From the IMG/VR virus record IMGVR_UViG_3300032893_000012, positions 32,001 through 96,000 of that record: a stretch of 64,000 bases of DNA; one strand, given 5' to 3'. Made by a program: the position numbers and the translations under genes. The stretch is from a virus. Position 1 is the first letter of the stretch. Each line of letters opens with the position of its first letter. Of this stretch, positions 1 through 25,655 are shown piece after piece. The notes under the pieces are model-generated. The model did not search any database. It was not told where the DNA came from and worked only from the letters and a program-made list of their open reading frames with translations.

Positions 1-1003
1 AGCCGGCCGCCATCTGAAAACCCCTCGTTGCATCGCCAGGCGCGACGGATTTGATAGCTTCTGCGAGCCCCGGTGTCGACGAAAGCGCTTGCTGTCCGGC
101 GGCAAGTACCGCCTGAAGCCCTTCAGGCGCGATACCGACGAGTCCTTTCGCAAGTGCGTTTTGGATCTTCTCGCCGGTTGCGACAGAAACGCCGATGTCG
201 AACGCTTTTCTGGCGGGACCATCCGGAACAAGATTTCGAGCGCTCTCGATTGCGGCCTTGGCGACGTTCTCGCCAGAGGCGACTTTCATCGCAGCGTCGA
301 AACCGGCAGCGGCGATAGGACCACCCGGGATCGCTCCGCGGATTGCAGCCTTCGCCGCTTCGTCGATACTTTTACCCTCGGCGAGCGCTGCGCCTGCTCC
401 GATAGCTGCCGCGACTCCGGTACCGATACCCGGGACGAGAGACACGACGGTTTGTGCGTACGGAGCAACGTCTTTGACGATTTTGACCTGATCCTTGAGC
501 GCTCCAACGAGTGCGTGATCGAGTCGTTCGCCAGTTGCGATGTTTTTTGCGAGATTGAGAGGTGCGACCGCTGCCTCACCAACGATATGCGCCAAATCTC
601 CTACGACTGGGATGCTCGAGATGGCGTGACCAACATCTGAGATCGCTTTGCCGGGATCGAATCTTGTGGTGATTGTCCAGCTTCGCTTGGCGGCATCGCG
701 TAGGTAGCGGTCGTGATCCTCTTTCCTCTTCGGAGTCGACTGCCAAAACTTGTCATCCGGGCGCGTGTTGACATCGTTGGGTTTGTCGTAACCGTTCATC
801 TCCGCAAGTCGTGCGGTACGCGCCGCTATTGCAGCCGTGTCATTGGCTTCGGTCTCTTTTCGAAGCGCAATTCTGTTGGCGTCCACATCCTGAATCACAG
901 CCATCGCAAAACCGGTCCAGCGCTGGCGGTCGGCGTTGGTCGCATTTTTGATGTGTATCTGAAGCCATCCGGGCCATTCGCTTCCAAGTCCTATTTCGTC
1001 CAT
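1..1003 (-). CDS. Ala/Gly-rich putative virion/membrane protein, 3' end beyond window
   Basis: Read manually: ATG at 1003 gives MDEIGLGSEWPGWLQ... and the frame appears open to position 1. Amphipathic Ala/Gly-rich helices; N-terminal IGLG motif. Confidence 0.75.
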   Translation of the reverse strand, partial: MDEIGLGSEWPGWLQIHIKNATNADRQRWTGFAMAVIQDVDANRIALRKETEANDTAAIAARTARLAEMNGYDKPNDVNTRPDDKFWQSTPKRKEDHDRYLRDAAKRSWTITTRFDPGKAISDVGHAISSIPVVGDLAHIVGEAAVAPLNLAKNIATGERLDHALVGALKDQVKIVKDVAPYAQTVVSLVPGIGTGVAAAIGAGAALAEGKSIDEAAKAAIRGAIPGGPIAAAGFDAAMKVASGENVAKAAIESARNLVPDGPARKAFDIGVSVATGEKIQNALAKGLVGIAPEGLQAVLAAGQQALSSTPGLAEAIKSVAPGDATRGFQMAAG

Positions 1004-1007
1004 GGCG

Positions 1008-1403
1008 TCAAGATCGTATCACCATCTTGAGAAAATGGGGATTGGTCAAACCGTTGCGAATTCGCTGGATTCGCCGCGCGGCTCGAGGTCCAGGAACACC
1101 GAGTTCTACGAGTGCCAGTCCCGCGATGACCCCGGAACGGTTACGCCCCTGCCAACAAGTTACGAGTACGCGTTGTCCGGAGCGAATTTGCCGAGCGACT
1201 TCGTACGCGGTGTCTCTGATCAGTGCTTTCTCTTCTCTGGTCGGCGGAGGGCCGTCGTCGAGCGGTACATGAATGACTTCGTATCCGGGTATCTCCGGTT
1301 GGTATTCGATTGCCGCGAGCACGATAGTATCGAATGGGATTTCGACGCTAATCGGCGGAGCACTTCCTTGCGCTAACCTTTGCGACAGATACGAATACCC
1401 CAT
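1008..1403 (-). CDS. Dual-specificity protein phosphatase (CX5R)
   Basis: P-loop VLVTCWQGRNRSG, general-acid loop PLDDG, C-terminal IRNGLTNPHF. Start at 1403 overlaps the upstream stop (TGATG). Confidence 0.85.
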   Translation of the reverse strand: MGYSYLSQRLAQGSAPPISVEIPFDTIVLAAIEYQPEIPGYEVIHVPLDDGPPPTREEKALIRDTAYEVARQIRSGQRVLVTCWQGRNRSGVIAGLALVELGVPGPRAARRIQRIRNGLTNPHFLKMVIRS

Positions 1404-1789
1404 CACGTTGCGGCGAGTAGGGTCACTCCGTGATGCAACCCCCATGGCTTCACCGGCCCTCCAGGCTCATGGTAGTGCTGCTCGATCCATGTAGCGTACA
1501 TTTTCCCATCCGAAGCTGTAAACGGTGCGAGTGTTCCGTACGGCATCGACGTAAATCCAGGGGTACTTCGAAGAGCGTTTGCCTGTGCACGTAGATCTGA
1601 TGTGACCTCAGAACTGGTTACTCGACGCCACCCGGGTGGTACGGCAAGCGAGACTTTTTTAGTTTCTCCGTAAGTAGTGGGTGGTACTGCTGTTGATACA
1701 ATCGGTGTTGCGCGTGATTTTCGCGCAAGAAGAAACACAGCTGTTGCTGCTGCGGCTGCTCCTCCAAATACGATCCAGTTCGATTTCAA
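1403..1789 (-). CDS. N-terminally membrane-anchored protein with His-rich C-terminal domain
   Basis: Hydrophobic N-terminus; IEQHYHEPGG...WGLHHGVTL motif; coupled to neighbours. Confidence 0.7.
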   Translation of the reverse strand: MKSNWIVFGGAAAAATAVFLLARKSRATPIVSTAVPPTTYGETKKVSLAVPPGWRRVTSSEVTSDLRAQANALRSTPGFTSMPYGTLAPFTASDGKMYATWIEQHYHEPGGPVKPWGLHHGVTLLAAT

Positions 1790-2346
1790 GCGAACCTTCG
1801 CACTGGTAGTGTTCGGTAGGCTACGTATCCAGCGGTCGCTGCGAGACCAAGAGCAGCGACCACCACAAGCGCATCAGATCCTTTAGTGCGCTGTGGCGCG
1901 ATCACTTGTGTTTCAGGCTGCACGTCTTGAAGTCTAGCAATCAACTTATTCAAAGATGGGTACGTGCTACCGAGATACGAATTCAAAGCGTTCTGCCACG
2001 CGGTTACGTCGCCTGAGTCTGCCGCCACAAGGCCGCCGTATCGATCCAGAGCCTTCAGCATCGAATACGCACCGGATCTCGCGTCTGAGAATGCGCGGAA
2101 TTTCAGTGGCGAGGAAACTTTTGGATTATAAAACCACGATACATCGTCGCGCGACGTGGTCACATTTCCGACGTTCCAGTTGTACATCGATTGCCACTCA
2201 GCTGTTTCGTTTGCGCTGAGCGCTAGTGGCCAAAGCCACGAGCTTTTTGCCGGAAGATCGCGAGATCTCAGCGTACGATACGCCTCGACAATAGCGCCGG
2301 CGACGTGCGGCGCATTACTCGGCGTTAGAGCGGCGGCGACCTGCAT
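1786..2346 (-). CDS. GH73/glucosaminidase-like peptidoglycan hydrolase with C-terminal TM anchor
   Basis: SANETAEW..MYNWNVGNV and KFRAFSD motifs resemble lysozyme-fold FlgJ/GH73 enzymes. C-terminal TM plus basic tail. Confidence 0.6.
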   Translation of the reverse strand: MQVAAALTPSNAPHVAGAIVEAYRTLRSRDLPAKSSWLWPLALSANETAEWQSMYNWNVGNVTTSRDDVSWFYNPKVSSPLKFRAFSDARSGAYSMLKALDRYGGLVAADSGDVTAWQNALNSYLGSTYPSLNKLIARLQDVQPETQVIAPQRTKGSDALVVVAALGLAATAGYVAYRTLPVRRFA

Positions 2347-2464
2347 TAGCGCGAAGGGGTACGACGCGGTTCCGGATCTGGACCTGGCGCGACGGAAGGC
2401 GAACTCGTATCGAGTTTCGTGCTGCGTACGACTTCAAGCTTCGGTGGTTCGTATTTTTCTTTCG

Positions 2465-3904
2465 TCATGGCAACGCGACGACCTCCGAGAGGTTACTGGT
2501 GTTCGCGAACGGAAGCGTCGCCCACGTCTTGTCGGTTCCGGCGATGCGAGCATCGACGGTGGAGCCGGTAAGGGAGGGCAAAATATCGTACTGAAATGCG
2601 GCCATCGAGTAGGTTCGAATCCCGAAGGCGTACCCGCTCGTTGGCCCCCAGAGACGCGCGTTGTTGTGCTGGTAGCTTGCACATCCTGGGTCTACCTCCC
2701 ACGCGACGCCGCCTGAGGCGGTCGCTCCTGCTTGAACCTGCGCGCCGTTCGCTTCGATGAAGCCAGCATCAGTCTGGAGCACGCGGCCGCCGTCGAGCGT
2801 GATCGCGTTCTGCATTTGCAGGGTCGCCGAACCAAAGACGTTCAGCGTCGACTGAAAGACGCAGTCGGCCATTCCCAGGGTCGAATTCAATCCAACTGTC
2901 ATGCTCGACTTGAAGATGGATTGATCAACGTGGCAGGTCGCGTTCACGAAGCCAGCGAAGCAATTCGAGTCGAAGGAACATCCGACGAACTGAACGCCGG
3001 AAACGGTCGACGGATCCGACTGAGGACGCCAATACTGGAACGAGGCGAAACCGCTCGAGGGATCGCTCGTGAAGTTCATGTCCTTCCATAGGAAGCGTCC
3101 AGCGCCTTTGACGCGGAGATCCATGCGCCCCTGAAACGTCGTCTGGAGAGTATCGACGACGTAGGAATCACCCGGGGACGGGTTTACTCCGGTCGCGATC
3201 ACATTGCCCGGCGGCGCGTTCGACGTGAAGCGCGACCACCCGGTCACCTGGGCGACGGTACCGGTCGTACCCCCCTGAGTGTAAGTGATGGCCCCGCTCG
3301 TGGCGCCGCTCGTTGTCCGGAGACGTTGCCCACGTGAGAACGAGCCCGCACCGTCTGTTGCCGTTCCACGGGTGTTCGAGCCTGAAGCAGTTGGCGTGAG
3401 CGCCGAGAAGGTCGACGCGACGCTTGAACTGACGGTCCCCTGGATCGTGACGAGGATGCCGGTTCCGATGTGCAAGTCGAGCGGTCCGAGATCGGTCAGT
3501 GTTCCTGCGGCGACAGTGACAACGACGTTCGAGGAGACGTCGTTCCAGCGCATCCGATTTCCCCATTCGACGAGTGTCTTGAGCGGCGCACCGAGCGTCA
3601 TGCCGCTGTTCCGGTCGTCGCCCGAGACAGGGTCGATGAACCATGTCGTGACGTACTGGGCGAGCTGGTTTCGAATGTATTGCCGGATAGCTAAGGCCCC
3701 TGCGGGCGCCGCCGGTGCGATGACGTTCAGCCCGTCCGCGGCGGGAGTTGGGGAAGGTGCGACGAGGTAGAGATACTGGTCGTTCACTACGCCGACGGTT
3801 ACCACCGTGAGATCGTTCATCGTCGTCAGATCCGCTGCAGCGAGTGCCTGCGGCGACGCGAACGCGGTCTGGGTGATCTGGCTCTGACGAACCTTCTCGG
3901 TCAT
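2465..3904 (-). CDS. Spike/receptor-binding protein, probable beta-helix
   Basis: WFIDPVSGDDRNSG...PLKTL motif typical of N-caps of beta-helix proteins. Paralogous to the C-terminal head of the 1814-aa fibre. Confidence 0.65.
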   Translation of the reverse strand: MTEKVRQSQITQTAFASPQALAAADLTTMNDLTVVTVGVVNDQYLYLVAPSPTPAADGLNVIAPAAPAGALAIRQYIRNQLAQYVTTWFIDPVSGDDRNSGMTLGAPLKTLVEWGNRMRWNDVSSNVVVTVAAGTLTDLGPLDLHIGTGILVTIQGTVSSSVASTFSALTPTASGSNTRGTATDGAGSFSRGQRLRTTSGATSGAITYTQGGTTGTVAQVTGWSRFTSNAPPGNVIATGVNPSPGDSYVVDTLQTTFQGRMDLRVKGAGRFLWKDMNFTSDPSSGFASFQYWRPQSDPSTVSGVQFVGCSFDSNCFAGFVNATCHVDQSIFKSSMTVGLNSTLGMADCVFQSTLNVFGSATLQMQNAITLDGGRVLQTDAGFIEANGAQVQAGATASGGVAWEVDPGCASYQHNNARLWGPTSGYAFGIRTYSMAAFQYDILPSLTGSTVDARIAGTDKTWATLPFANTSNLSEVVALP

Positions 3905-3914
3905 CGCGATGTTC

Positions 3915-4406
3915 CTACGGTGACTGGTTTACAGTGAGCTGCTGAATGAAAAGTTTCGTGCCGCTCGCGAGAATGAGTCCGCTTGCGCCGATCATGTTCG
4001 CCTGTGCGAAGATGACCGTCGGAAACCCGGCTGGCGTCCCGGAGTAAGGGATCTCATTTCCGAGTCGATTCGCGTTCAGGGTCATGGTGAGGACGGAGGT
4101 GCCCGAGTGAAGATCCGTCACCGAGACGTCAGAGGTCGTCGTCGATGAGCTCGCCAGAGTGACCTGGGTCTCGCTCGGCTGTACGTTCAGAGCAAACTGA
4201 AGCTGGACGAAGTAGAATCCGTACTGGCACGCGAATGCCGGGGAGGCCCCGAAGCTCCCCCCTGGGAAAGCGACGACGCCGAACGAGTCGGAGATAAACT
4301 CGAGCGAGCTGAAGGGGATGATCAACGGAACGCCGCTCGAGAAGGCGGTGTTCGTCGCTAGACCGAGTCTTGCGAAGGGGCGACTGCCGTAGGTTCGATT
4401 GCTCAC
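3915..4406 (-). CDS. Beta-rich hypothetical protein, possible fibre-associated domain
   Basis: 163-aa beta-strand-rich ORF packed between two spike genes. Confidence 0.55.
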   Translation of the reverse strand: MSNRTYGSRPFARLGLATNTAFSSGVPLIIPFSSLEFISDSFGVVAFPGGSFGASPAFACQYGFYFVQLQFALNVQPSETQVTLASSSTTTSDVSVTDLHSGTSVLTMTLNANRLGNEIPYSGTPAGFPTVIFAQANMIGASGLILASGTKLFIQQLTVNQSP

Positions 4407-4409
4407 AGG

Positions 4410-7400
4410 TCAGGTTCCTCCCGGACCATACGTCGCGCCGTTCGTCAAATCGACGAACTGATCGGAGTAGGAGTGGAAGACATTGTTCGCTGCCACCTGC
4501 TGTGACGCGATCATGCCTGGGATGGTCGGGGTTGCTCCGTACATGAACGTCGATCCGCCAGACACGTAGATCCCGAACTGTAGTCCGGTATTGTTTGCGC
4601 CCCAGACATACGACGAGGAGCCGTTGAAGACCATCTTCGCGCCTTCGGTGACCAAGATCGCGCCGGCCGGAGGTGTGCCCGAGAGTCCGACAAAGGAACA
4701 GTCGAAGCCGTTCGAGAGCCAGTTGCCGCTCCGGATGGTGAGGCTCGAGGTTCCGCCTCCGACGATTTGCACCGATTCGAGCTGTGACACGTAAGAATCA
4801 ATCGACGTGAGCGAGCCAGATACGACAACGGCTGCAAGTTGAATATTACCGCCCTGCAGGGTCGAGCTGCCTCCGAAGTTACCTCCGAATTTGCTGCAAC
4901 CGATGATCCCTGTCGAGTCCTGGAAAAAAGCCCCGAAGGGGAAGTCGCATCCGTAGACGAATGCCCCGAGAGCGTTTGGATTTTGGTTTGACCAAATCCG
5001 GCAAGCGTCGGTCGCGATAGTGCTCGTATCAAGGAGCGCGATGACGCTACGACTCGTTCCGATAGCACGGATCTGGAATCCAGGAATGAGGCTGTCGAGT
5101 GTATCGACTACGAAGATGTCGCCTGGATCGGGATTCAGTTCGGAAAAGACCGGAGCGATCCCGCCGGTGAGCTTCGCCCAACCGTTCGTGTTCGAATCGG
5201 AACCGTCGATGGTGTGGGTCGTCCAGGTGATAGCGCCGACGTTGTTCGCATTTGCGGCTGCGGTCACTCGAAGGCGTGCGTTCTCTGCGATACTGATCCC
5301 GAGGTAACTGAGGAGCGCACGCGTGTTCGTCGCGCCATTCTGGGGCGTGCTCGAAACCACCGCGTAGTTCGGGCTTGAGGTGACATGCCCTTGGATAAGG
5401 AACTCGATACCGTCGACGTCAGCGAAGATGATGTCGAGATTGATGGCGTCGAAGGTTCCCGCGGCGAGCGTAACGAGCACGCTCTGTTGGATGACACCCC
5501 CCTTCAGACGGTAGCCGAGCTCGCGGAACGTGCGGATGGCAGTGAGCGCGGTCGATCCGTCGAGCTCATCGTTTCCGTTCACCGGATCGATGTACCAGTT
5601 CGTCTGGAGCCACGCCTGATAGTTGCCCCAAAAGAGTCGTACCCAGACGGCTCCTGCCGGCGCGAGCGCGAGGACGACGCTCGTCCCGTCGACGGCGCCG
5701 ATGAGACTCCCGGGCGCGTTCTTCACAAGCTCGTAGCCGTCGTTGATGGTGCGGGTGTAGGCAATGGCTCCGTCGGCGATGCCCGTCGCGTCGGTGTTCG
5801 CCATCTGGTTCACCGAGGCGAACAGGATGCTCGCGCCAGGGCCCGCGGGGCCGGTCGCACCAGTGAGACCTGTTGGTCCCGTGCGTCCCGTGAAACCGGT
5901 TGGTCCGGTTGACCCTAGATTACCCGTGGGTCCCGTGCGTCCGGTTGGTCCAGTAAATCCGGTCGGTCCCTGCGTACCGGTCGTTCCGGTTGGCCCGGTG
6001 CGTCCCGTCGAACCGGTCGGCCCCGTGCCGAGGGCCCCTGTCGGTCCGGTCGGTCCCGTGCGACCCGTCGCGCCCGTCGGACCCGTGCCGACAGCGCCAG
6101 AAGGTCCCGTGGGTCCCGTTCCGCTCGCTCCGGGGACGTCGTAGAAGAAGTCTAGCCGGTAGTTCCCGTCGAGGTTGAAGCCGGCGACGCTCTGGTTCCA
6201 GTAACAGCGATCACCCAGAACGATGGCGCCTTGCGCGCGCGCCGTCGCGCCGCCGTCGCCCGAGAAATAGCAAGAGACGCCGATCTTGGTACCGTTGCCG
6301 ACGCTGTAGAGGACTCCGTCTGCGGCGACTGAGGTGTATCCGATGGGAGTCGCGGCAATCGCCGTCGCGGTCGCGAGATCTCCGTCCGCTGTCGTGACGG
6401 AGGCGACCATCTGTTTGTTCAGGGCGGATGGCGCGTTGGCGATGTTCGCAGGCCCGGTCGGTCCAGTGGCGCCGGTGTTTGCAGCCGTCCCCTGGGGTCC
6501 CGTAGAGCCGGTCGGTCCGGTCGTTCCTGTCGCACCGGTGTTTGCCGCCGTACCCGCGGGTCCTGTCGCACCAGTGACGCCCGAGGCGCCGGTCCACCCG
6601 GTAGGCCCTGTTGCGCCCGTTATGCCGGTTGGTCCGGTACGTCCCGTTGGACCCGTCGCGCCGGTGTTCGTAGCCGTTCCGGCGACGCCGGTCGGACCCG
6701 TGAATCCAGTAGGTCCGGTAAATCCGGTTGCTCCAGTTGCGCCCGTATTCGCCGCGCTTCCGTCCGGACCTGTGAATCCGGTTGGACCAAGCGGCCCTGT
6801 GACACCTGCGGGGCCAGCGGCGCCGACAGGTCCGGTTGTGCCCGTTGGCCCCGTCGTTCCGGTCGCACCCGTATTTGAAGCGGTTCCCGCGGGACCCGTC
6901 GAACCTGTGACCCCAGAGGGCCCTGTCGGTCCCGTGACCGTGCTTGTTGCTCCCGTCGGCCCGGTCGCTCCGGTGTTCGTGGCGCTTCCAGCGGGGCCCG
7001 TTGGACCCGTCGAACCAGAGGGGCCCGTCACGCCGGAGGGACCGGTAGCGCCGGTCGATCCAGTCACGCCTGAAGCACCTGTGGGGCCCGTCGCGCCGGT
7101 GTTCACGGCCGTGCCTGCAGGACCCGTGGACCCAGTCGGCCCTGTATTTCCGGTGGGACCTGTGAATCCGGTCGCGCCCGTCGCGCCCGAGGGACCTGTG
7201 CTTCCGGTGGCGCCCGTCACACCGGAGGGTCCCGTCGCCCCCGTGGCGCCGGTGTTGGTTGCCGAACCGGCAGGCCCAGTAGGACCCGTTCGTCCAGTAA
7301 ATCCAGTTGGCCCGGTTGCTCCGGTATTGGTCGCTGACCCCGGAACGCCGGTCGGGCCAGTGAAGCCCGTGGGGCCCGTCGCGCCGGTGTTTGAGGCGCT

Positions 7401-10442: not shown

Positions 10443-10631
10443 TCACTTCTTCGCTTTGGACGCGATCTCAGCTAGACGCGCTACGACTTCGGGGCGAATC
10501 TTGATCGTTCCTACCGAACCGTTCTCTTTGTCGTCGTCGGAGATTTCCATCGAACCATCGTCCATTGTCCGCACCGTGGGACACCTCTTTTGTCCGCAGC
10601 ACAGTGTTTCTTGATGGATCGTTTTCGGCAT
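10443..10631 (-). CDS. Small Cys-containing hypothetical protein
   Basis: 62 aa, CCGQKRCP; AGGAG upstream. Confidence 0.55.
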   Translation of the reverse strand: MPKTIHQETLCCGQKRCPTVRTMDDGSMEISDDDKENGSVGTIKIRPEVVARLAEIASKAKK

Positions 10632-10641
10632 AGCGGACTCC

Positions 10642-13545: not shown

Positions 13546-13766
13546 GGGAACCTCGGTGGAGCTAATTGCTGTTGCGGCTGCGGATCAGGCCCGGCGCCGA
13601 TCGCTGCACCGACAAAACCGCCAAAGACCGCTCCGAGTGCGACGCCTGCCTCTTGAGCGTCACCACGGGTTAGTCCTCCAGGGAATCTGGTTGCGAGCTG
13701 TTCACCGACGATCGCTCCCACGATGACGCCAAGTCCGCCGCCGAGTCCAGCTAACGCGCGGCTCAT
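13542..13766 (-). CDS. Small glycine-zipper membrane protein
   Basis: MSRALAGLGGGLGVIVG...GAVFGGFVGAAIG; paralogue at 28237-28488; ATG overlaps the upstream stop. Confidence 0.65.
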   Translation of the reverse strand: MSRALAGLGGGLGVIVGAIVGEQLATRFPGGLTRGDAQEAGVALGAVFGGFVGAAIGAGPDPQPQQQLAPPRFP

Positions 13767-15324: not shown

Positions 15325-15408
15325 GCGGCTTTACTGTCTTACAGCCGCCGCAAAACTTCTCTACTTGTGTGGCAGTCGACTTCAAAAACTTGTTCTCCTG
15401 AAACGCGA

Positions 15409-15444
15409 CGAGCGGCGCGGCGCTGTTTTCGCCGGCGCCGCTCG
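15409..15444 (-). terminator. GC-rich stem-loop downstream of the capsid candidate
   Basis: CGAGCGGCGC-GGCG / CGCC-G-GCGCCGCTCG; only a weak U-tract. Confidence 0.45.
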
Positions 15445-15494
15445 CGCTATGTGCTTAGAAAAGGCGATCGACCTTCTTCGGCACTCCTCTCGAA

Positions 15495-16891: not shown

Positions 16892-16933
16892 ACACCTCAA
16901 CCCCGGGGCTCGAGGCCTACCGGGGCGAGGTGT
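16892..16933 (-). promoter_or_regulatory. Long stem-loop in the leader of the capsid candidate
   Basis: ACACCTC..CCCCGG-GGC / GCC..CCGGGG..GAGGTGT inverted repeat. Confidence 0.5.
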
Positions 16934-16947
16934 TTCACTGAACGAGT

Positions 16948-18633
16948 TCAGGTGCCGGGCAGGTACGGCAGCTCCTCGCGACTTTCTCCGAGGAAAGCGG
17001 AGTGACCGGCGAGCGGATCGCCTACGCACCCGCACGACGGATCCGAATGCGGTCGCGCCTGTGGCCCGGGACCGACGTCTGAGGGCGGTCCTGGTTGCCA
17101 ATCCTGGCTCACGCCAGGTTGACCCGGATTACCGCGTCCGTACGGCGCTCCGGTCCCCATGGACTGCGCCACGGTCGGGTAGTCGCTTCCGGGACCACCG
17201 GTTCCCCACGTGTTTTGCACGGTGGGGTACTGGGAGTCCTGAATGCCGGTGGCGTTTCGCAGCGCCTGGCCAGCATCCGGGTAAGGCGACTCCGCGGCGA
17301 GCGCGAACGGACCCACGTCGGCTCCGGAGAGCACGCCAGCCACGGCAGTCACCTGCTTCTGCTGCATGTTCAGGGATGCCGCGACCTCCGCTGGATAGAG
17401 GCGCACGATGATGCTCTTCTGGAGCGACGGAGGACTCGTGTCCTTCGGTGTGAGCATCGGCATGAGGAAGTTGTTCCAGAACATCCGGAACAGATTCACT
17501 CCGGCGCCGAGCGCCAGACCATCCAATGCCGCTTTCCCTGTTCGATTGCGGACGGCATACGCCGAGAGCAACGCTGGCGCGGCAGCGACCCCGACTCCGG
17601 CGCCGATGCGCATGAGGTTGGGACGCATGGCCACGTTCAACGTGTTTGCGAGCGTGCCCGAACCATCGCTCGTAAACTTGTCGGTCGGCTTCGGATCTGT
17701 CGAGGACGGATTGTACGTAGCGAGCAAGCGATCGATGCCGTCCGCTAGAATGAAACCGACGCCGCTGGTGACAACCGCCACCGCGAAATCAGCAACACCC
17801 ATTCCGCTTCCGCCTCCGCTAGATGCGTGCATACGCCGACTGTGACGCCGACGAGAATGACGACGACGAGGCGATTCCATCACGTGCGCTCGGCGCCGGC
17901 TGTGGCGCCTGCGACGACGACGCGGAGCTTCGCTCACCACCGCTTCTCGAGTGGTTCGCCTACGCGCGTGCCGGCGCGTCTTCTTGCGACGCCAACCCTT
18001 CTTGGCTGCCTTCCGGTGACCGGAGGGGTTACCGCGCCACGCCTGCACGTTGCTATGCACGCGACGCCGATGCCGGCGACGTCGCCACTTCTGCTGCGGC
18101 GTGAGCACGCGCTTGCGCGTTCGACGACTTGCGCGGGCCTGTGTCTTGCGCGCTCGGCGACGACGCCTCCGCTTGGGGGCTGCCACCGATGTAGCTGCAC
18201 GAACGCGCCGGCGACGCGCGCGCTTGGGCGCACTCTTCTTCTTGCTAGAGCGACGACGACGACGGGGTGAGGATACTTTCGCAGTTCTGGCCATGCTTTC
18301 CTCTCGAGCGACTACGGCGCGGATGCCTTTGCCGAACGGGACGGTCCGTTTGACTTTGGACCCTTTCGGATCGAATTGACGGATGCGGATGTACTGGTCG
18401 GTGACGTCCACCTTCCCGTACCGGTAGCCGTGAGACCTAGCCCACGCTTTCGCCTTGCTCTCGGTCCACCCGGCGCTGCGATGAAACAGCAACGATTGGA
18501 CAGACATCGATTTCGACTCGTGCGGCGCAACGGCGTCCGTACGCGGGTATGCGATCGGAGATGGCCTGTTTCGCGCGACATCACTACGGCGTGATTCGCT
18601 GAGATCGGCCAGTCGATCGTCGTAAAGACCCAT
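16948..18633 (-). CDS. Arg-rich core-like protein (QSLLF domain + protamine-like region + hydrophobic segments)
   Basis: SVQSLLF...HGYRYGKVDVTDQYIRIRQ domain; ~160 aa of poly-Arg blocks; hydrophobic helices. Possible internal start at 18294 with GAGG SD. Confidence 0.75.
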   Translation of the reverse strand: MGLYDDRLADLSESRRSDVARNRPSPIAYPRTDAVAPHESKSMSVQSLLFHRSAGWTESKAKAWARSHGYRYGKVDVTDQYIRIRQFDPKGSKVKRTVPFGKGIRAVVAREESMARTAKVSSPRRRRRSSKKKSAPKRARRRRVRAATSVAAPKRRRRRRARKTQARASRRTRKRVLTPQQKWRRRRHRRRVHSNVQAWRGNPSGHRKAAKKGWRRKKTRRHARRRTTREAVVSEAPRRRRRRHSRRRAHVMESPRRRHSRRRHSRRMHASSGGGSGMGVADFAVAVVTSGVGFILADGIDRLLATYNPSSTDPKPTDKFTSDGSGTLANTLNVAMRPNLMRIGAGVGVAAAPALLSAYAVRNRTGKAALDGLALGAGVNLFRMFWNNFLMPMLTPKDTSPPSLQKSIIVRLYPAEVAASLNMQQKQVTAVAGVLSGADVGPFALAAESPYPDAGQALRNATGIQDSQYPTVQNTWGTGGPGSDYPTVAQSMGTGAPYGRGNPGQPGVSQDWQPGPPSDVGPGPQARPHSDPSCGCVGDPLAGHSAFLGESREELPYLPGT

Positions 18634-18856
18634 GTCACGATGCACTGACAGGCTCTCAGCGCAACCTATTACGGTCAATACGATGGCAAATAACGAGACG
18701 AATCACGCGCGCGTTGCCATCACGCGAATGCGCGTCAACACCCCGACTCAGCACATGTCTAAAAATTTAGTATTCACGCGATGTTACGCATGAACACCCT
18801 CGTGACAATTCGACGCCAAATACCACTACGACATCGGCGTAACTCGAGCACCGTTT

Positions 18857-18897: not shown

Positions 18898-20529
18898 TTA
18901 TCGGATGTTCGGGTAGAGCAGATCGAGCAAAGTTGTGCGTTTACGGTGCACGCCGCCGAGCGAGCCTTCGCTCATACCAACGAAGTCTCCCGCACCGATC
19001 TCTTTTGCGGTCTTCCCTGGTTCGACCCACCACTCTTTTGCGTTGGGAGAGACGTGTCCGACGGGATAGTTCGTCGTTCCGTCCATTCTCACCCAATCTC
19101 CGAGGTCATCTTCGAACGCCATGAATACGTGTGTCGGTACTTCATACGGCGCACGGTGACTGCTTCCGATGATCATGGCGTCGATACCGATCGACATCAC
19201 CGCTGCGGCGAGCGTGATAGCCGCTTCGTCACAGTTGCTTACGGTTACGTCGTGCTCTGGGAGGTAGACGTAGTGATCGTCGGTAGAAATATCCCAGCAA
19301 GGGACTTTTCTGACGGATCGATCTATCGATCGAACCGACAGTGTGAGTGATCCTTTCTCCCGTTGACCGACACGCCACAGAGGATGCTTTCCAGCTCCGC
19401 CATGTTGCTCTGGAGTGAGCATTTTAACGCTTGTCATCTTGCCGAACATACGATGCAGTACGCGCACCTGAAGCATGAGTTGTCTGCTAGTCGTCGAATA
19501 CGTACGCGTGGCGGCGCCGGTGTTCTTCGTGCTATCGGCCATCAATCCGCGCAAGGCCGCAGCGGCGCTAGCCTCTTCGAGATTAATCGTTTCCAGATGT
19601 TTAAATCTCGCTCGAGATCCTAGTCCGGCTATCCGTGAAGCCCATTCTCTATCTTTGATCTCGATGTATTTCGCGTGCCAGAGAGTCTCGATCCCGAGGC
19701 GTTCGCAGATGGCCTTGACCTCATGCTTCTGTTCTTCTTTGCGTTTGCCGTCGCGACCGCCAATGCGAAATTTCAGATGCGGCAGATTTTTGTTTTTGCT
19801 CGCTTCCACCCATCCGTCTGCGAGCGTCAGAGCTTCGACGTACATGCGATCCGGATCAACTCGCATCGATCCGAAAACGATACGTTCTGGTTGGAGAAGT
19901 GCGTCTCCCTCCGACAGATCAGTCACGCGGACACGCTCAAATGCGTTGCAATCTTTTTGGTAGCAGGCTCCGTGTGCTGACCGACCGTGCGGACACCTGC
20001 CGACATATACCTTGTGATCGCCGGTCAAATGCATCGTCGAGCCGTTGCTCATCTCGATAGCATCGACCGAAAGCGCTCCTTTTGCCCATTTTTGCGTAAC
20101 TTCGCTCCACTTGTCCTTGCCCCAGATACGATCGCCGATATTGATCTTTTCGATCGGAATGAATTCAAAATCGTCGCGTAGGAGCAGCGTTCCTTCCGGG
20201 AAGCAATCGCCGCCGATGATGCAAAGCCCTCCCTCGTCGAGACAGAGAAGCTGGTTCGGTGTCGCCATAAATTCTCCCATGACTGGGTCAGCGACGTACG
20301 GAACCTTCTTTCTGAAGGCATCGAGAATACACTGCGCCTTTTGACGTTTCCCGCCACGTGACACGCCTTTTTTGTCGAGCTGTTGGAGCACCCAGGCGCG
20401 CAATCTCGGACTCATTCGTGCGGACCATGCGCGGTCGGCCACCTCTTGCAAGGATTTCTTCGCTCCCTTAGCGCCAGCAGGGTGCGGTCCAGCATCTGTC
20501 TTCACTCCATTTATAGGCTTGTCGATCAT
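18898..20529 (-). CDS. Transglutaminase-like cysteine enzyme interrupted by an intein
   Basis: Spliced sequence GGD|CDEAAITLAA...THVF...WVRMDGT gives a Cys-His-Asp triad; 219 aa after splicing. Confidence 0.85.
   Translation of the reverse strand: MIDKPINGVKTDAGPHPAGAKGAKKSLQEVADRAWSARMSPRLRAWVLQQLDKKGVSRGGKRQKAQCILDAFRKKVPYVADPVMGEFMATPNQLLCLDEGGLCIIGGDCFPEGTLLLRDDFEFIPIEKINIGDRIWGKDKWSEVTQKWAKGALSVDAIEMSNGSTMHLTGDHKVYVGRCPHGRSAHGACYQKDCNAFERVRVTDLSEGDALLQPERIVFGSMRVDPDRMYVEALTLADGWVEASKNKNLPHLKFRIGGRDGKRKEEQKHEVKAICERLGIETLWHAKYIEIKDREWASRIAGLGSRARFKHLETINLEEASAAAALRGLMADSTKNTGAATRTYSTTSRQLMLQVRVLHRMFGKMTSVKMLTPEQHGGAGKHPLWRVGQREKGSLTLSVRSIDRSVRKVPCWDISTDDHYVYLPEHDVTVSNCDEAAITLAAAVMSIGIDAMIIGSSHRAPYEVPTHVFMAFEDDLGDWVRMDGTTNYPVGHVSPNAKEWWVEPGKTAKEIGAGDFVGMSEGSLGGVHRKRTTLLDLLYPNIR
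19234..20205 (-). mobile_element. Intein (324 aa) with LAGLIDADG-type homing endonuclease remnant
   Basis: Block A CFPEGT, block B LTGDHKV, block C ALTLADGW, block E LRGLMADS, blocks F/G CWDISTDDH...TVSN|C. Confidence 0.9.
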
Positions 20530-21578
20530 CGGCGATTACGCTTTCGGTTTGTCAGATAGATCGCACTTCCTACGACTCCTGCCCCGAGGAGTCCGATTCC
20601 CGCCATCGCTCCGACGCTGAGTCCAGATGATGCAGTCGCTACAGGTGCAGCAGGCGTGATAGGCGCAACAGGTGATACGGTTACATGCGGTGCGCACGCA
20701 GTCGGAGCGCTCCCTAGCGCCTGCGCTAGAGCGCTCGCTGTCGCTTGCTCGTAGTTGCTCGTGTTGATCGGAACTGGGTTAGCGCCGGACGAATTCCAAG
20801 CCGTTTTGAAGGCGTGAACCGCTGCGTTGACGCTGCTTCCGGGGTGCGTCACCGACGTGCAGTAACTCGGATCGGCGACAATGGCGGCTACTGCGGCTCG
20901 TGCGGCATCGGCTACTGAGGTAGGCGGCGCCGGGACATCGCCGTAAAACGCTTGCAGCGCTAGCCTAGCCGATGACATCGCATCCGAGAGATCGTGTAAG
21001 ACGTCCGAACGAACCTGAAAGGAATCGTTGCTATTTCCGGCAACGATTGCAGCACTAAGCGCCGGAAGTCGAGCGCGCGCTTTACTGGTGCTCTTACGTA
21101 CGTCTTGCGCGTACGGGATTGCGTACACCGCAGGGGACCCACTGCCGACGATTTCCGAGACCGATGCATCCACAACATTGGCAGCATTTTCAGCGGCGTC
21201 GCCGAATCCTTGATCTCCCATCGCAGCAAGCGCACTGACCTTCGCATTCGCCGCATCGAGCGCGGCGTAGTCGGCGAGCACTCCAGCGGCCGCATCACCG
21301 AGAGACGATGGCGTGACGCCATCCATATGAGGAAGCGCAGCGAAGTACGCCCGGGGACGCGTATCCAGTTCGCCAGAGAACCACTTCTCCGGTAAGTTGA
21401 GAACCTCGCCCTCGCGTAGATCTTTGAACGTAACGAAACCGTTCGGAAGACGCTTTGCCGCCTTGTGAGGGTTGGCGCGCACGATGTCAATTGCGCATTT
21501 TGGGCAGCCAGCCATGTCCGGCCGACTGGCGATACTAGCCGGGCTATCTCCAGCCTGAACGACGTAAGTCCGCGTCAC
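20526..21578 (-). CDS. LysM-like protein with C-terminal TM anchor
   Basis: YVVQAGDSPASIA...ANPHK; shares an ADPxYC..VN.AVH.FK.AWN domain and the anchor with 11440-12798. Confidence 0.8.
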   Translation of the reverse strand: MTRTYVVQAGDSPASIASRPDMAGCPKCAIDIVRANPHKAAKRLPNGFVTFKDLREGEVLNLPEKWFSGELDTRPRAYFAALPHMDGVTPSSLGDAAAGVLADYAALDAANAKVSALAAMGDQGFGDAAENAANVVDASVSEIVGSGSPAVYAIPYAQDVRKSTSKARARLPALSAAIVAGNSNDSFQVRSDVLHDLSDAMSSARLALQAFYGDVPAPPTSVADAARAAVAAIVADPSYCTSVTHPGSSVNAAVHAFKTAWNSSGANPVPINTSNYEQATASALAQALGSAPTACAPHVTVSPVAPITPAAPVATASSGLSVGAMAGIGLLGAGVVGSAIYLTNRKRNRR

Positions 21579-21631
21579 GCCTCAAAGACTACGCGCTAGT
21601 CATGAGGGTCGTCCAGCAGCAGCTGGAATCT

Positions 21632-21823
21632 TTAGGCGTATTCGCGCTCTGGCTGGTGTACGACAGGGCTTCCGTTACCGTCCGCGAGCCGGATTCCTTC
21701 ATTTTCGACTGCCATCCGTACGAGCGGACTCTTGAGGAGTTCGAGTAACTTGATCGCTTGTTCAAGCCCCTGATGGTCGTTCGCCGCTTCGATCGCAACG
21801 CTCATTGTGACGCGGTATCTCAC
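21632..21823 (-). CDS. Hypothetical protein
   Basis: 63 aa, start overlaps the upstream stop. Confidence 0.55.
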   Translation of the reverse strand: MRYRVTMSVAIEAANDHQGLEQAIKLLELLKSPLVRMAVENEGIRLADGNGSPVVHQPEREYA

Positions 21824-22095
21824 GCAGAGAACCCCGCATCAGGCTGCGGCTCAGGCGGCTGTGGAGCGTTTTCCTGCGGAGGCGTGTCAGAAGTAATCGG
21901 AGGAGCGCTAGGCGGCGTCGAACCCACAACAGCAGCAGCGAATATTTCTCCAGCTATCCGAAAAAGATTCGGATCGATTCCACGCAAGTGTCTCAAAGTG
22001 TCGTGGATAGCGTTCAGTGTCCAACGCCGCCCTACGTCTTCGGCATACTTGAGCACTTCATCGTCAGTGAGTTCAACTTGAATAGAAAAACGCAT
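21820..22095 (-). CDS. Hypothetical protein
   Basis: MRFSIQVEL start coupled (TAATG) to the 560-aa gene. Confidence 0.55.
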   Translation of the reverse strand: MRFSIQVELTDDEVLKYAEDVGRRWTLNAIHDTLRHLRGIDPNLFRIAGEIFAAAVVGSTPPSAPPITSDTPPQENAPQPPEPQPDAGFSA

Positions 22096-23777
22096 TAGGA
22101 GTTTCCTTGTCCAGAAATATTCGGTGGTGCCCACGTCTGTCGCGATGCAGGTGAAGGCGAAATAGGCGGCGGTAGATTCGCTGGCGGAGGAGGAAGCGGC
22201 GCTGCGGTCGGGGGCAATTGATGCGGATCCACCGCTGCCGCAACGAATCCTGGCGGTGGTTGGTAGTCTGGCGGCACCTCTAAGTAGCCTGGCGGCAACA
22301 CGCGCTTCTGTTCTGGAGCTCGATTTTGACTCTTCTGGATCGCCTCGCGTTGTTCACCGAGCCACTTGAGAAAGCTTCCCAGGTTCGCCGCTGCAGATTC
22401 GCCCCAGCGCATAGTGCCATCCGCTTTGCTGTACGCGATCTTGCCGTTGCCAGTATCGAGAATTTTGATCGGACTGTCGTCTTCTTCGGTCGCTACCGGT
22501 TCCGGCGCTTCTCGCTCTTCGTCCGTCCCTAGAATACTTCCAAATTCTTTCGCGGTAGCTACAGCCGTGCGTACCAATGTCAGCGATTCTTTGAGATGCT
22601 CCGCCGCAGTTTGCTGGCGCGGTGGCTGCTCACTGCTGTATCGCGGTGGCGGTGGCGGCGCCTGACCTGGATCTCCTTGCGGGTAATACTGACGCTGAGG
22701 CCCCATGCGCGCGCCCGATCCGGGCCCCATGTTCGGAACGAACAGCGACGCTAGTCGGTCGATCGGTACGAAACCGAGCGGCGTCCACACCGTGCCCTGA
22801 GGAGCAGGTATCGGGGGCGCACCCATCATTCCTGGAACGAAGCTTGGTACCGCTGGCGGCGTCGGCGGCGCTCCCTGCGTTACCTGTTGCGGCTGCATGG
22901 ACTGCGCGAGAGTGAGCATCCGCTGGAACCATTCCATCATCGTCGGCATGTCCGCCCCCGGTGGGGGCATTGGCGGCGGCGGCGGAGGAGGCGGCGGCGC
23001 TTGCGGCGGAGGCTGCATGCTCTGAACTATTTGCTGCATCCGCTGAAACCACTCGAACATCGTACCCATGTCGGGTCCAGCCGGCGCCTGAACAACGACT
23101 GGTACTTGCGGCGGCTGCGGCGACGGAGCTGTCGCAGCTGCGGGCGGATACGCTGGTTGCGGCTGCGGGGGCGAGTAACCAGGTTGAGCTGGATAACCGG
23201 GCAGCGGATACTGTGGTGGATAGCCGGGCGGATATGGATATGACATCGGCTGTCCTTGCTGCGGTCGAGTATCCGGCAATGTGATCTTACCGTTACCGCG
23301 AAACTGCTTGCTATTGGTGTCGAGGATTTTGACCTCGTAGTCGGCCTCACCGTGCTGGCCGTGAATGATCTTGAGCGCGTCGTAGAGTTCCGCCGCGGAT
23401 CTTGGACGACTGATGATTACTTGCTGGACCGGAGTTCCAGTAAGCCGTCTAACGTGTATGTCGAGTGTGTTTGCTGGCCAATACCGAAGAAGCGTCTCGT
23501 ACGTGGTGAGCAGATCACCGGTGTTGAACGAGACCTTGCTCTGGTTCGAGCGCTTCTTGTCGACGATAGCGTCGAGGCGACGGTTTTCACGTACGCTTTC
23601 GGCGTCGACGGCGCCTATCGCGCGAACGGCATCTTCGGATGCTACGAGTTCGCCAGTGTCCTCGTCACGTTCAGCCCCAACCTCGGCCAGGACGTCGGCC
23701 TCGTCCTCCTGCGCAGGTGTATTCGAGGCTGTATGCGCAGGAGGCGATTCACTGCGAATTCGTCTACGTGTTCCCAT
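22095..23777 (-). CDS. Pro/Gln-rich 560-aa protein
   Basis: Globular N-terminal part, long polyproline tracts, duplicated DMxTMxEWFQRM motif. Confidence 0.75.
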   Translation of the reverse strand: MGTRRRIRSESPPAHTASNTPAQEDEADVLAEVGAERDEDTGELVASEDAVRAIGAVDAESVRENRRLDAIVDKKRSNQSKVSFNTGDLLTTYETLLRYWPANTLDIHVRRLTGTPVQQVIISRPRSAAELYDALKIIHGQHGEADYEVKILDTNSKQFRGNGKITLPDTRPQQGQPMSYPYPPGYPPQYPLPGYPAQPGYSPPQPQPAYPPAAATAPSPQPPQVPVVVQAPAGPDMGTMFEWFQRMQQIVQSMQPPPQAPPPPPPPPPMPPPGADMPTMMEWFQRMLTLAQSMQPQQVTQGAPPTPPAVPSFVPGMMGAPPIPAPQGTVWTPLGFVPIDRLASLFVPNMGPGSGARMGPQRQYYPQGDPGQAPPPPPRYSSEQPPRQQTAAEHLKESLTLVRTAVATAKEFGSILGTDEEREAPEPVATEEDDSPIKILDTGNGKIAYSKADGTMRWGESAAANLGSFLKWLGEQREAIQKSQNRAPEQKRVLPPGYLEVPPDYQPPPGFVAAAVDPHQLPPTAAPLPPPPANLPPPISPSPASRQTWAPPNISGQGNS

Positions 23778-23780
23778 CGT

Positions 23781-24170
23781 TCAAACTTGCGCCTGTCCGC
23801 CCGTCGTCTGCTGCGGTTCTTCCTCTTCTGGTTCGGTTCCGTCAGATTCGGCTGCCTCGAGTTCGTCAGCGAAGACCTCGAGAGGCATCGCCTCTTGTAC
23901 GAATCGAATTCGACCCATTGGAACGAAGTCGCGCATACCTACTGCGTCACCACCTTCAACCGCATCCAAATACGAGAAAATCTCGATTCCTCCGCCCGCA
24001 TCTGTTCCAATGAACATACGTACGACTTTCGCGCCTGGCACGTGCGGATGCTCGCTACCCACCGCCCATCGTGTGGTCTCAGGCTGCCCCGATACGGGAG
24101 CTAGATTGTCACTGATCACGAGTGTGACCATTGGATAGGTCGGAGGCGGAAGCTTAAAAACTGTCGTCAC
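23781..24170 (-). CDS. Hypothetical protein with acidic tail
   Basis: 129 aa, coupled to neighbours. Confidence 0.6.
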   Translation of the reverse strand: MTTVFKLPPPTYPMVTLVISDNLAPVSGQPETTRWAVGSEHPHVPGAKVVRMFIGTDAGGGIEIFSYLDAVEGGDAVGMRDFVPMGRIRFVQEAMPLEVFADELEAAESDGTEPEEEEPQQTTGGQAQV

Positions 24171-24769
24171 AGCGCGTTATCCTCCAAGAATGAGTAGTAG
24201 CTCCGCCTACGAGCGTCGCCGGCGACGATAATGTGGTCGAGGAACTTGATGTCAATGGTTTCGAACGCATCAACGAAGGCGTCTGTCGTTTCGATGTCCG
24301 CCTCGCTCGGTTCGGCTTCGATGCCCGACGGGTGTACGTGGAAGATGATCACCGCGTGCGCCCCGTCCGCTACGGCGGCTTGAAGAGTCGGTAGGATGGG
24401 TGCCATCACGCTGGACGGCTCCCCACGTCCGGTCTCAGCAAGACCCTTGAATCGTAAATGCAGATCAAGCGTCACGACTCCGAAAACCTCATTGACCTCG
24501 TCTTCGATGGCCTCACCGATGAGATGGAAGGCCTTTTCCGGTTCGTCGAGCGGTCCGATCTGATCTGAGAGCGCGTTACACGCCGCGAACCTGTCAGCGT
24601 CCTTCTGAATCGTCAAAAACGGACGGCACCGCGCGCCGCGCTTGCCATCGATGATGAGCGGTTCTACTTCGCGCGGTCGTCGCGGGGCCACCCGATCCCG
24701 TACAATACCGCGGATGGCATGTTCCGAGACTCCGTGCATGCGAGTAAGCGGCCTGCACGCGCAAGTCAC
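24167..24769 (-). CDS. radC: RadC-like JAB/MPN domain protein
   Basis: EVFGVVTLD...FHVHPSG..EPSEADIETT...LDHIIV matches the RadC JAB pattern. Confidence 0.85.
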   Translation of the reverse strand: MTCACRPLTRMHGVSEHAIRGIVRDRVAPRRPREVEPLIIDGKRGARCRPFLTIQKDADRFAACNALSDQIGPLDEPEKAFHLIGEAIEDEVNEVFGVVTLDLHLRFKGLAETGRGEPSSVMAPILPTLQAAVADGAHAVIIFHVHPSGIEAEPSEADIETTDAFVDAFETIDIKFLDHIIVAGDARRRSYYSFLEDNAL

Positions 24770-25074
24770 GCTACAGCCGCCTGTATTGATGCGCCTTTCA
24801 GATCGACAAATTCATCTAGCGATACGCCGCGCACGCGGCAGATCGCTTCGTCGATCTTGAAAGTGACGCAATGCCTCTTGAAGGTCATGTCGTACACTTT
24901 TTGTGCCACGACGATGTCTCCCGGCTTGTATCCTGCAGCCTCTGCCGCTGGACCAACCTCGTCGAGCAGGAAACAGCGCGTGACACCTTTCGCGTGATCA
25001 AGCACCAGTTCACTGGTCGGTTTCGGCACAAGAGCGCGTCCGATGACCCAATCGTTAACAGGTTCGAGCTTCAC
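24766..25074 (-). CDS. GroES-like co-chaperonin (divergent)
   Basis: MKLEPVNDWVIG...EVGP...KPGDIVV resembles GroES (L.PL.DRV...VG.G...VK.GD.V). Confidence 0.55.
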   Translation of the reverse strand: MKLEPVNDWVIGRALVPKPTSELVLDHAKGVTRCFLLDEVGPAAEAAGYKPGDIVVAQKVYDMTFKRHCVTFKIDEAICRVRGVSLDEFVDLKGASIQAAVA

Positions 25075-25655
25075 GTCTGTTCCTCTTCTTGTTCGATAGT
25101 GAATCGATCGTAGAAAGACTGCGAAGGTGACGGAGGGGTTAGCGCAGCGATGGTACCGTCCGTATTCGGCGGAGGTTCGACCGTTGCGCTTTGAAGGCGA
25201 GCCAGTTCCGCTTTCGTTGTTTCGAGCTCGATCTCGAGAGCCATACGCGAGGTTAATACTTCACTGAAATACTCACGACTTGGGGCGAAGTACGGTTCCT
25301 GTGCCGGCGGACGCGCAGCGAGAGGAGCAAACTGTCGTGCGGCGTTCAATACAACGAGAGCGTTCATGCGCTGTTCGCGGTCAGGGCAACCTCGAGTGAT
25401 CAGAACAGCAGGCTTCCCTGAATCTGAAGTGTCGTAGCGATCGTTTACGCACGGTTCCGTTTCATCGTCTTTGCCGGGACAGCCGTTCACGTGCGCGCAT
25501 CGTTCAAGTATTCCGAAGGCAGCGCGCGCCGCAATCTGCCAGCCGACTTTGTTGCGCCACAGAGCGAGCTTGACGGCGTTCCAGTCGCGTACCGATATCG
25601 GTACCTTCTGATCGACTGGAGTTTCGAGCCCCTGCCTTCTTTTTTCGTTCATCAT
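25071..25655 (-). CDS. Hypothetical protein
   Basis: 194 aa with a Cys cluster and a coiled coil. Confidence 0.6.
   Translation of the reverse strand: MMNEKRRQGLETPVDQKVPISVRDWNAVKLALWRNKVGWQIAARAAFGILERCAHVNGCPGKDDETEPCVNDRYDTSDSGKPAVLITRGCPDREQRMNALVVLNAARQFAPLAARPPAQEPYFAPSREYFSEVLTSRMALEIELETTKAELARLQSATVEPPPNTDGTIAALTPPSPSQSFYDRFTIEQEEEQT

Follow-up and report, generated by a model that had tools for sequence, protein, structure and literature searches.

A predicted virion-morphogenesis module with jelly-roll capsid-like proteins in an uncultivated family of large bacterial viruses

Jelly-roll capsid-like proteins in a minus-strand gene block

Our analysis of a 64,000-bp stretch of viral DNA (positions 32001-96000 of the 109,321-bp IMG/VR virus record IMGVR_UViG_3300032893_000012; GC content 59%; hereafter, the window) indicates that a ~26-kb block of genes at its start is probably the set of virion-morphogenesis genes in an uncultivated family of large (~110-125 kb), tailless, bacterial double-stranded DNA viruses. 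In particular, the adjacent genes g043 and g042 encode proteins whose predicted structures are jelly rolls, and a third conserved beta-rich protein, g041, is encoded next to them. Every plausible gene at window positions 2-26002 lies on the minus strand, and transcription runs from window position 26002 towards the window start. The block reaches 832 bp past that start, as shown by g032, whose beginning is at contig position 33003. The gene calls recovered all of the elements that an earlier, sequence-only reading of the window had listed: a co-oriented block with fibres, transmembrane-anchored proteins, an Arg-rich protein, a transglutaminase-like enzyme, and adjacent beta-rich proteins. The three capsid-like proteins are as follows.

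15495-16832, minus strand: g043, predicted large jelly-roll capsid protein, 445 amino acids (aa)
14653-15300, minus strand: g042, predicted small jelly-roll capsid protein, ~200-215 aa; open reading frame (ORF) open to 15324
13763-14650, minus strand: g041, third conserved beta-rich protein, 295 aa; present in 33 of 34 related loci

The start codon of g043, an ATG at 16832, is backed by an AGGAG 12 nt upstream and by the lengths of homologues. An AlphaFold2 model of g043, made with a 71-sequence alignment, has a mean predicted local distance difference test score (pLDDT) of 83.7 and a predicted template-modelling score (pTM) of 0.83, and is mostly beta, with a jelly roll. When the PDB and BFVD were searched with this model in Foldseek, no row fell below 1e-3; jelly-roll capsids (papillomavirus L1, CRESS) ranked highest, with TM-scores that are meaningless. 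The best matches in a second structural comparison are PRD1/PR772 P3, with middling Z. Since single-domain structure matches of ~100 residues span model residues 56 to 423, g043 would have a base-plus-insertion layout: N-terminal strands 57-135 and C-terminal strands 385-424 appear to share one base sandwich, and residues ~140-380 (11 strands and 3 helices) appear to form an inserted, beta-rich upper domain of ~240 aa.

The 223-aa ORF of g042 probably starts later than annotated, given homologues of ~200 aa. The AlphaFold2 model of g042 (27-sequence alignment; pLDDT 80.7, pTM 0.73) is an eight-strand sandwich with helices, a single jelly roll. In Foldseek it matches the SPV1 capsid protein best (E 6.4e-4, prob 0.99), next three HHIV-2 capsid chains (prob 0.94-0.97), and then HCIV-1. 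Taken together, the nearest solved structures of g043 and g042 are capsid proteins of SPV1, HHIV-2, HCIV-1, PRD1/PR772, STIV, and PBCV-1, which are tailless, membrane-containing viruses; BclA-type and carbohydrate-binding jelly rolls are also among the structure matches. The AlphaFold2/Foldseek check that had been proposed from the sequence thus gave jelly rolls, and not HK97 folds, for the 445-aa and ~200-aa proteins. Two tandem g042 paralogues, 45% and 63% identical to the g042 of the window, are present in one related locus (L028:11326-12012 and 12009-12632, plus strand), and one of the two has long Pro-rich loop insertions.

The sequence-only reading had also pointed to similar C-terminal strands in the 445-aa and 223-aa proteins. 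This similarity is present, and is the top profile-profile alignment, but it does not reach significance (hhalign E 0.2, or 0.025 when the C-terminal slice is aligned by itself); in both models the sandwich ends with the strand in question, after which come C-terminal helices. No significant internal duplication of g043 was detected by hhalign between slices, and a 32% match between slices was rejected as an artefact of slice overlap. Searches of the PDB sequences with profiles of the g041, g042, and g043 alignments returned noise only, Pfam and PHROGs assigned no family to g041-g044, g046, or g048, and the ESM Atlas held no model of, or match to, g043. The g041 protein, with no sequence relative in the PDB, has a median identity of 62% across loci and always adjoins g043 and g042, and could be a vertex (penton) or an additional shell protein. 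The gene for the 445-aa protein is flanked by GC-rich hairpins (window 15400-15450 and 16905-16945, minus strand), the downstream one having a stem of ~16 bp and no T-run; scans of the block for promoters and terminators gave nothing beyond chance.

The genes for the capsid-like proteins are both widespread and well conserved. Homologues of g043 in metagenomes fall into more than 426 clusters at 90% identity (E<=0.01) and, among the matches listed, are 65-90% identical, all without a name, on contigs of up to 139 kb; an exhaustive search of 50%-identity representatives gave 167 clusters, with identities down to ~23%. For g042, 530 homologues were found in metagenomes. IMG/VR contains at least 31 related loci, on contigs of 4-125 kb. 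Across 34 loci, the best conserved genes are g043, g042, and g045 (median identity 70-72% over 28-34 loci), and the gene order g048-g046-g045-g044-g043-g042-g041-g040/g039 is kept down to an identity of 45% in the major capsid protein (MCP). Neither the 50,697 GenBank phage records nor the 72,556 plasmids searched contained a g043 homologue.

Other proteins of the block and their predicted roles

The remaining features of the block, in transcription order, are the following, all on the minus strand.

24167-26002, minus strand: g050 (RadC-like JAB protein), g051 (102 aa), g052 (194 aa), and g053 (ribbon-helix-helix regulator); matches to PF04002 (82 bits), NikA-like/ribbon-helix-helix, and phrog_10276
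21632-24170, minus strand: g047 (63 aa, conserved), g048 (560 aa), and g049 (129 aa, acidic tail); upstream of the capsid genes in 19-25 loci
20526-21578, minus strand: g046, 350-aa tail-anchored protein with a LysM-like N-terminus; cross-matches with g039
18898-20529, minus strand: g045, transglutaminase-like Cys enzyme, extein of ~219 aa, split by a predicted intein
19234-20205, minus strand: predicted intein in g045, 324 aa (protein residues 109-432); Hint and LAGLIDADG matches
16948-18678, minus strand: g044, 576-aa protamine-like, putative core protein; in 31 related loci, without a family match
12829-13545, minus strand: g040, 238-aa tail-anchored membrane protein; in 30 related loci
11440-12798, minus strand: g039, 452 aa, LysM-like and PG_binding_1 domains, Pro-rich linkers, C-terminal membrane anchor
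10443-11190, minus strand: g037 (62-aa Cys-rich conserved protein, in 20 related loci) and g038 (182-aa short spike-like protein)
4410-9854, minus strand: g036, 1814-aa collagen-like fibre with a docking-like N-terminal peptide, G-x-y triplets, and a globular C-terminal part
2465-4406, minus strand: g034 and g035, 479 and 163 aa, beta-rich and Ser/Thr/Gly-rich by composition; without a family match
1786-2346, minus strand: g033, 186-aa tail-anchored membrane protein with a C-terminal hydrophobic 19-mer and basic tail; without a family match
2-1003 (in-window part), minus strand: g032, 611 aa, Ala/Gly/Pro-rich; no Pfam or PHROG function

Four proteins of the block (1786-2346, 11440-12798, 12829-13545, and 20526-21578) have C-terminal tail anchors, each consisting of a hydrophobic 19-mer followed by 3-11 Lys/Arg, and none of the four has an N-terminal signal-like segment. 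Together with the hydrophobic segments of g044, these anchors bear out the earlier claim of many transmembrane-anchored proteins in the block. Specifically, g039 matches PF01471 (54.2 bits) and LysM (20.6 bits) in Pfam and matches endolysin PHROGs via its binding domain, and is a candidate cell-wall-binding entry protein of the virion membrane; g046 shares with g039 the LysM-like N-terminus and a Cys-bracketed domain, as judged from cross-matches on the same loci. The presence of LysM and PG_binding_1 domains points to a bacterial host with peptidoglycan.

The protein g044 consists of a small N-terminal domain, a basic tract, hydrophobic segments, and a Pro/Gly tail. The Arg-rich, core-like protein of the sequence-only reading is recognised in its basic tract, residues 126-295, which contains 58 Arg and 14 Lys in 170 residues (42% Arg/Lys) and is followed by the hydrophobic segments. 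From this composition, g044 is a candidate DNA condenser tied to the membrane.

The assignment of a transglutaminase-like enzyme also held: an intein-free homologue of g045 scores above the Pfam Transglut_core cut-off (24.2 versus 23 bits). The g045 protein has 543 aa versus ~220 aa in its orthologues, with a median identity of 70% in 28 loci. In a pairwise alignment, one orthologue (L021:5399-6067) is colinear with residues 1-108 and 433-543, which leaves residues 109-432 as an insertion. This inserted segment begins with Cys, has Ser-Asn at its end, and is followed by Cys (junctions GGD/C and VSN/CDE), its penultimate His is replaced by Ser, and its matches to Hint and LAGLIDADG_3 are weak, below the Pfam cut-offs. 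It directly precedes the Cys of a D-C-D-x-A-A motif that aligns with the catalytic Cys region of Transglut_core. It is not present in the related loci examined, in which the orthologues are contiguous across the site. By its Hint match, its termini, and the uninterrupted orthologues, the insertion is identified as a predicted intein that carries a LAGLIDADG homing-endonuclease domain and that the sequence-only reading had not listed. A gene for a GIY-YIG and helix-turn-helix homing-endonuclease-like protein lies, in a related 117-kb genome, between the g042 and g041 orthologues (L021:11956-13044, plus strand), and several other loci have gaps of 0.6-1.1 kb at the same places. Both the intein and the GIY-YIG endonuclease fit highly conserved genes of viruses that co-infect.

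Fibres, likewise claimed for the block, are represented by the 1814-aa g036, which has collagen-like runs of G-x-y triplets over residues 25-1340; similar collagen-like regions occur in nine related loci. A second fibre, the 958-aa g071 (39673-42549, plus strand), lies outside the block and has G-x-y runs over residues 24-809; it matches collagen-like 'tail fibre' PHROGs because of these repeats. An N-terminal peptide, MGY(I/L)T...(S)PE(V/T)YP, is common to g036, g038, and g071. If fully triple-helical, the fibres would be up to ~370 nm long, as estimated at 0.29 nm per residue. From their position downstream of the long fibre, g034 and g035 are candidate fibre-tip or receptor-binding parts.

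The Pro-rich g048 (98 Pro in 560 aa), which has a repeated helical motif, is a candidate scaffold or tegument-like protein. The genes g050-g053, at the upstream end of the block, probably do not encode virion parts; the 102-aa protein encoded there (24766-25074, minus strand) has a GroES-like pattern by eye and no Pfam or PHROG match.

Genome context, packaging hallmarks, and rival explanations

The 109,321-bp record is classed as linear, has a CheckV completeness estimate of 100%, and has 111 genes by a rough codon-usage gene call; a terminal repeat was looked for in it and none was found. Direct terminal repeats are present in two relatives, G002 (124,600 bp) and G005 (116,275 bp). The 127-bp repeat of G002 falls between the g044 and g045 orthologues and cuts the structural module, which implies that these ends were created in assembly, from a genome that is circular or permuted; genomes of the family are most likely ~110-125 kb and circular or circularly permuted. 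G002 matches 45 of the 111 gene calls, comprising the replication set and the structural block, with g032 only weakly conserved.

Outside the window, the record encodes a replication and recombination set (SNF2/ResIII, RecD-like, and UvrD-like helicases, a PD-(D/E)XK nuclease, AAA_24, ParB, and a prim-pol), a DNA-polymerase exonuclease subunit-like protein identified by a PHROG match, a Dam methylase, an integrase-like protein, and a TnpB/Cas12-like protein. A 578-aa protein upstream of the window (contig 21289-23025; L002:5289-7025, plus strand) has a Cas12f1-like TNB domain (36 bits). The rest of the window, beyond the block, encodes glycosyltransferases (several of them GT2), methyltransferases, a GH16 enzyme, a rhomboid protease, a kinase-like protein, and the second collagen-like fibre. 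Among the individual matches are a rhomboid-family protease (57869-58417, minus strand; 62 bits), an Rv2525c-like glycoside-hydrolase-like protein that is a possible lysin (28926-29543, plus strand), and a GH16 glucanase-like protein (43649-45040, minus strand). A 344-aa protein (30727-31761, minus strand) contains ~20 tandem GTATAG(D/Y/A)x octapeptides and matches phrog_18079 (E 1e-58) and, weakly, DUF4774. No tRNA genes were found in the 64-kb window.

Six-frame family searches were performed on this genome and five relatives, giving six near-complete records, with five records per search; control genomes gave matches in these searches. No match at E<=1 was obtained for Terminase_6N, TerL_ATPase, Terminase_6C, or Phage_portal (five records each), or for Phage_capsid PF05065, the sole HK97 Pfam family searched (five near-complete records). 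Pfam and PHROG scans, which covered all proteins of at least 400 aa except the 1814-aa g036 and most smaller ones, likewise gave no head, portal, terminase, tail, sheath, tube, baseplate, or tape-measure family. The absence of any recognisable terminase, portal, HK97 capsid, tail, or tape measure, which had been read from the block, therefore extends to these searches. In addition, the 636-aa g006 was considered and rejected as a polymerase, terminase, or tape measure, being a non-conserved coiled-coil protein, and the 491-aa g028, which is beta-rich, conserved, and without a P-loop, is probably another virion protein.

The sequence-only reading had also proposed a search for an A32/FtsK-type packaging ATPase, and this search turned up none, either in this genome or in the repeat-closed relative: Pox_A32 gave no match at E<=1, and FtsK_SpoIIIE gave nothing near the cut-off (five records each). 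In a six-frame motif scan, convincing Walker A P-loops were found only in two replication helicases, g007 and g022. Without an A32/FtsK ATPase, the genome lacks a hallmark common to most Varidnaviria. The proposal of a large, Varidnaviria-like, tailless membrane virus accordingly stands in part: the genome is large, the virus appears tailless, and the g043 and g042 models are jelly rolls, but membership in Varidnaviria is not established and the packaging ATPase is missing. One relative, G002, encodes a 590-aa HerA-like P-loop ATPase (HerA_C, DUF87; L043:6970-8742, plus strand) ~2 kb from ParB, with winged-helix-like C-terminal repeats. The same gene occurs in G003 (L046) and as a fragment in G001; this genome, G004, and the repeat-closed G005 lack it. 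As it is missing from this genome and G005, we rejected it as the packaging enzyme of the family and regard it as accessory; it may serve in partition, in defence, or as an optional packaging aid.

Host-side homologues were found on two short contigs in a Polyangiaceae metagenome-assembled genome (MAG) and on two in a Binatia MAG, all unintegrated, and none of 400 further Myxococcota genomes has a homologue (401 searched, including the known MAG). A Myxococcota host, as raised from the sequence, remains a suggestion that comes from one Polyangiaceae MAG.

Several points weigh against our assignment of the block to a family of large tailless viruses. The virus is predicted from genes and models, and the enclosure of a 110-kb genome without a motor has no precedent. 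The record has no terminal repeats and so may lack a few kb, and the HerA-like ATPase of some relatives raises the prospect that a motor was perhaps missed or replaced. As for the shell, the base-plus-insertion layout suggested for g043 is drawn solely from aligned ranges, g041 has no usable model (its ESM Atlas model has a pLDDT of 0.28), and the g041, g042, and g043 families have no significant profile similarity to each other by hhalign.

The composition of the shell could also be read differently. In an unlikely but not negligible arrangement resembling that of PRD1, g043 would be the sole MCP, with two beta domains and pseudo-hexameric trimers, g042 would be the penton, and g041 would be the spike base or cement. 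An MCP gene followed by a small jelly-roll gene is, as a matter of general knowledge, a common order in double-jelly-roll viruses. However, the single-domain matches of g043 span residues 56 to 423 of its model, so that N- and C-terminal strands would share one sandwich, unlike in the canonical tandem layout; conservation is at the same level in g042 and g043, and the best Foldseek rows of g042 are to major capsid proteins and not to vertex ones; and the A32/FtsK ATPase is again not found.

Two further explanations would remove the tailless virus altogether, and we consider both improbable. The block might build a cell-envelope structure on a non-viral, plasmid-like element, with a collagen nap, wall-binding membrane proteins, and lectin-like jelly rolls comparable to exosporium or surface-fibril systems. 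The record carries ParB, integrase-like, and TnpB/Cas12-like genes and many glycosyltransferases and methyltransferases, the structure matches include the BclA-type and carbohydrate-binding jelly rolls, a circular plasmid would give terminal repeats too, and no packaging enzyme was found. However, g043, g042, g041, and the wall-binding proteins have no signal peptides and so cannot reach the cell surface by the usual route; the putative DNA-condensing protein is encoded in the same operon; general scans turned up no conjugation or secretion genes; homologues are absent from the plasmids and further Myxococcota genomes searched, and the cellular matches are the unintegrated contigs of two MAGs; and the shell genes are 70-90% conserved across hundreds of environmental variants, as is typical of capsid genes. 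Slightly less probable still is a very divergent tailed phage with undetectable HK97 capsid, portal, terminase, and tail genes, in which the jelly-roll proteins would be decoration or fibre parts. Many proteins, including g028, g034, g064, g068, and g069, are without an assignment and would leave room for such genes, and the collagen-like proteins match 'tail fibre' PHROGs, but these matches are due to the G-x-y repeats. Against a tailed phage stand the empty terminase, portal, and Phage_capsid searches across the six records, five per search, the absence of a head, tail, sheath, tube, or baseplate PHROG on any protein tested, and the restriction of P-loop ORFs to replication genes; moreover, the jelly-roll genes are the most conserved here, whereas tailed phages conserve terminase and capsid genes most. 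A family of large tailless viruses with a jelly-roll shell thus remains the reading that we favour.

Proposed assembly and comparison with known viruses

In the assembly scheme that we propose, g043, g042, and g041 would form an icosahedral shell, laid out with two major capsid proteins (as in sphaerolipoviruses) or with one such protein plus a vertex protein (as in PRD1). A lipid vesicle would lie under the shell, as suggested by the four tail-anchored proteins without signal peptides and by the membrane-anchored basic g044. In PRD1, a membrane patch with inserted virus proteins buds inward. If the tail-anchored proteins are inserted from the cytoplasm and the membrane likewise buds inward, their N-terminal domains would come to lie on the outer face of the virion membrane, where the wall-binding domains would meet the peptidoglycan of the next host at entry. 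We regard this topology argument as the strongest indirect support for a membrane. On the inner face, g044 would condense the DNA and tie it to the membrane. The papain-superfamily-like g045 could be a maturation protease for virion proteins or an entry enzyme, and the collagen-like fibres and short spike would dock to the shell via their shared N-terminal peptide and bind the host.

The least certain step is the entry of the DNA. In SPV1, the DNA is condensed by a viral protein inside the membrane. As no conserved packaging NTPase is present, the genome may be taken in as the virion co-assembles around a condensed nucleoprotein, a route proposed for SPV1, instead of being pumped; this is our preferred guess, and a tentative one. 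A broader proposal is that the family represents a new, realm-level lineage of bacterial viruses, with a jelly-roll shell, an inner membrane, and a 110-125-kb genome condensed by a membrane-anchored protamine-like protein and co-assembled without a motor. We consider this broader proposal doubtful; if true, the family would be a bacterial, giant-scale counterpart of SPV1, in which large double-stranded DNA is encapsidated without a terminase or A32-type ATPase.

To our knowledge, the prokaryotic jelly-roll viruses known so far are all small, and the large prokaryotic virus genomes are those of tailed phages. If our favoured reading is true, a family of 110-125-kb jelly-roll viruses that is widespread in soil and peat would break this small-size rule, would mirror in prokaryotes the way in which giant viruses grew from small jelly-roll ancestors, and would raise the question of how so much DNA is enclosed when no motor can be recognised. 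With its hundreds of variants, the family is abundant and wholly unannotated. If its capsid genes were named, many contigs now listed as 'unknown' could be classified in virome surveys; the capsid module also offers handy population markers in its intein and homing endonucleases. Literature searches found no published description of such large jelly-roll bacterial viruses.

Comparison with Helvetiavirae/Halopanivirales (HHIV-2, HCIV-1, SH1; P23-77) suggests several common features: adjacent larger and smaller jelly-roll genes, membrane proteins in the structural module, and spikes. Sphaerolipovirus genomes are ~30 kb. Differences from this group include a genome that is here 4-7 times larger (109-125 kb versus 16-31 kb), the lack of a conserved FtsK/HerA packaging ATPase and of sequence similarity, the predicted ~240-aa insertion in the large protein, the long collagen-like fibres, the protamine-like core protein, and hosts that appear to be soil and peat bacteria, in contrast to halophilic archaea or Thermus.

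Portogloboviridae share with the present family the apparent absence of a motor: SPV1 has no packaging ATPase (PMC8812541), and none is recognised here. SPV1, however, is a 20-kb virus of a hyperthermophilic archaeon without sequence similarity to the present family, in which the core protein is Arg-rich, apparently membrane-anchored, and unrelated to that of SPV1, and which has a large replication module. The likeness to Tectiviridae (PRD1, PR772) consists of an inward-budded membrane with virus proteins (predicted here by the topology argument), wall-active virion proteins, and spikes docking via N-terminal peptides. Unlike the present family, Tectiviridae and other prokaryotic double-jelly-roll viruses have genomes of <20 kb (PMC8812541), a protein-primed polymerase, and a P9 ATPase, none of which is seen here, and their canonical tandem double jelly roll does not appear to be the layout of g043. 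Set against all of these systems, what is new in our reading is a virus with a jelly-roll capsid whose genome is several times that of any prokaryotic member of the class and which does without the packaging ATPase common to most of them.

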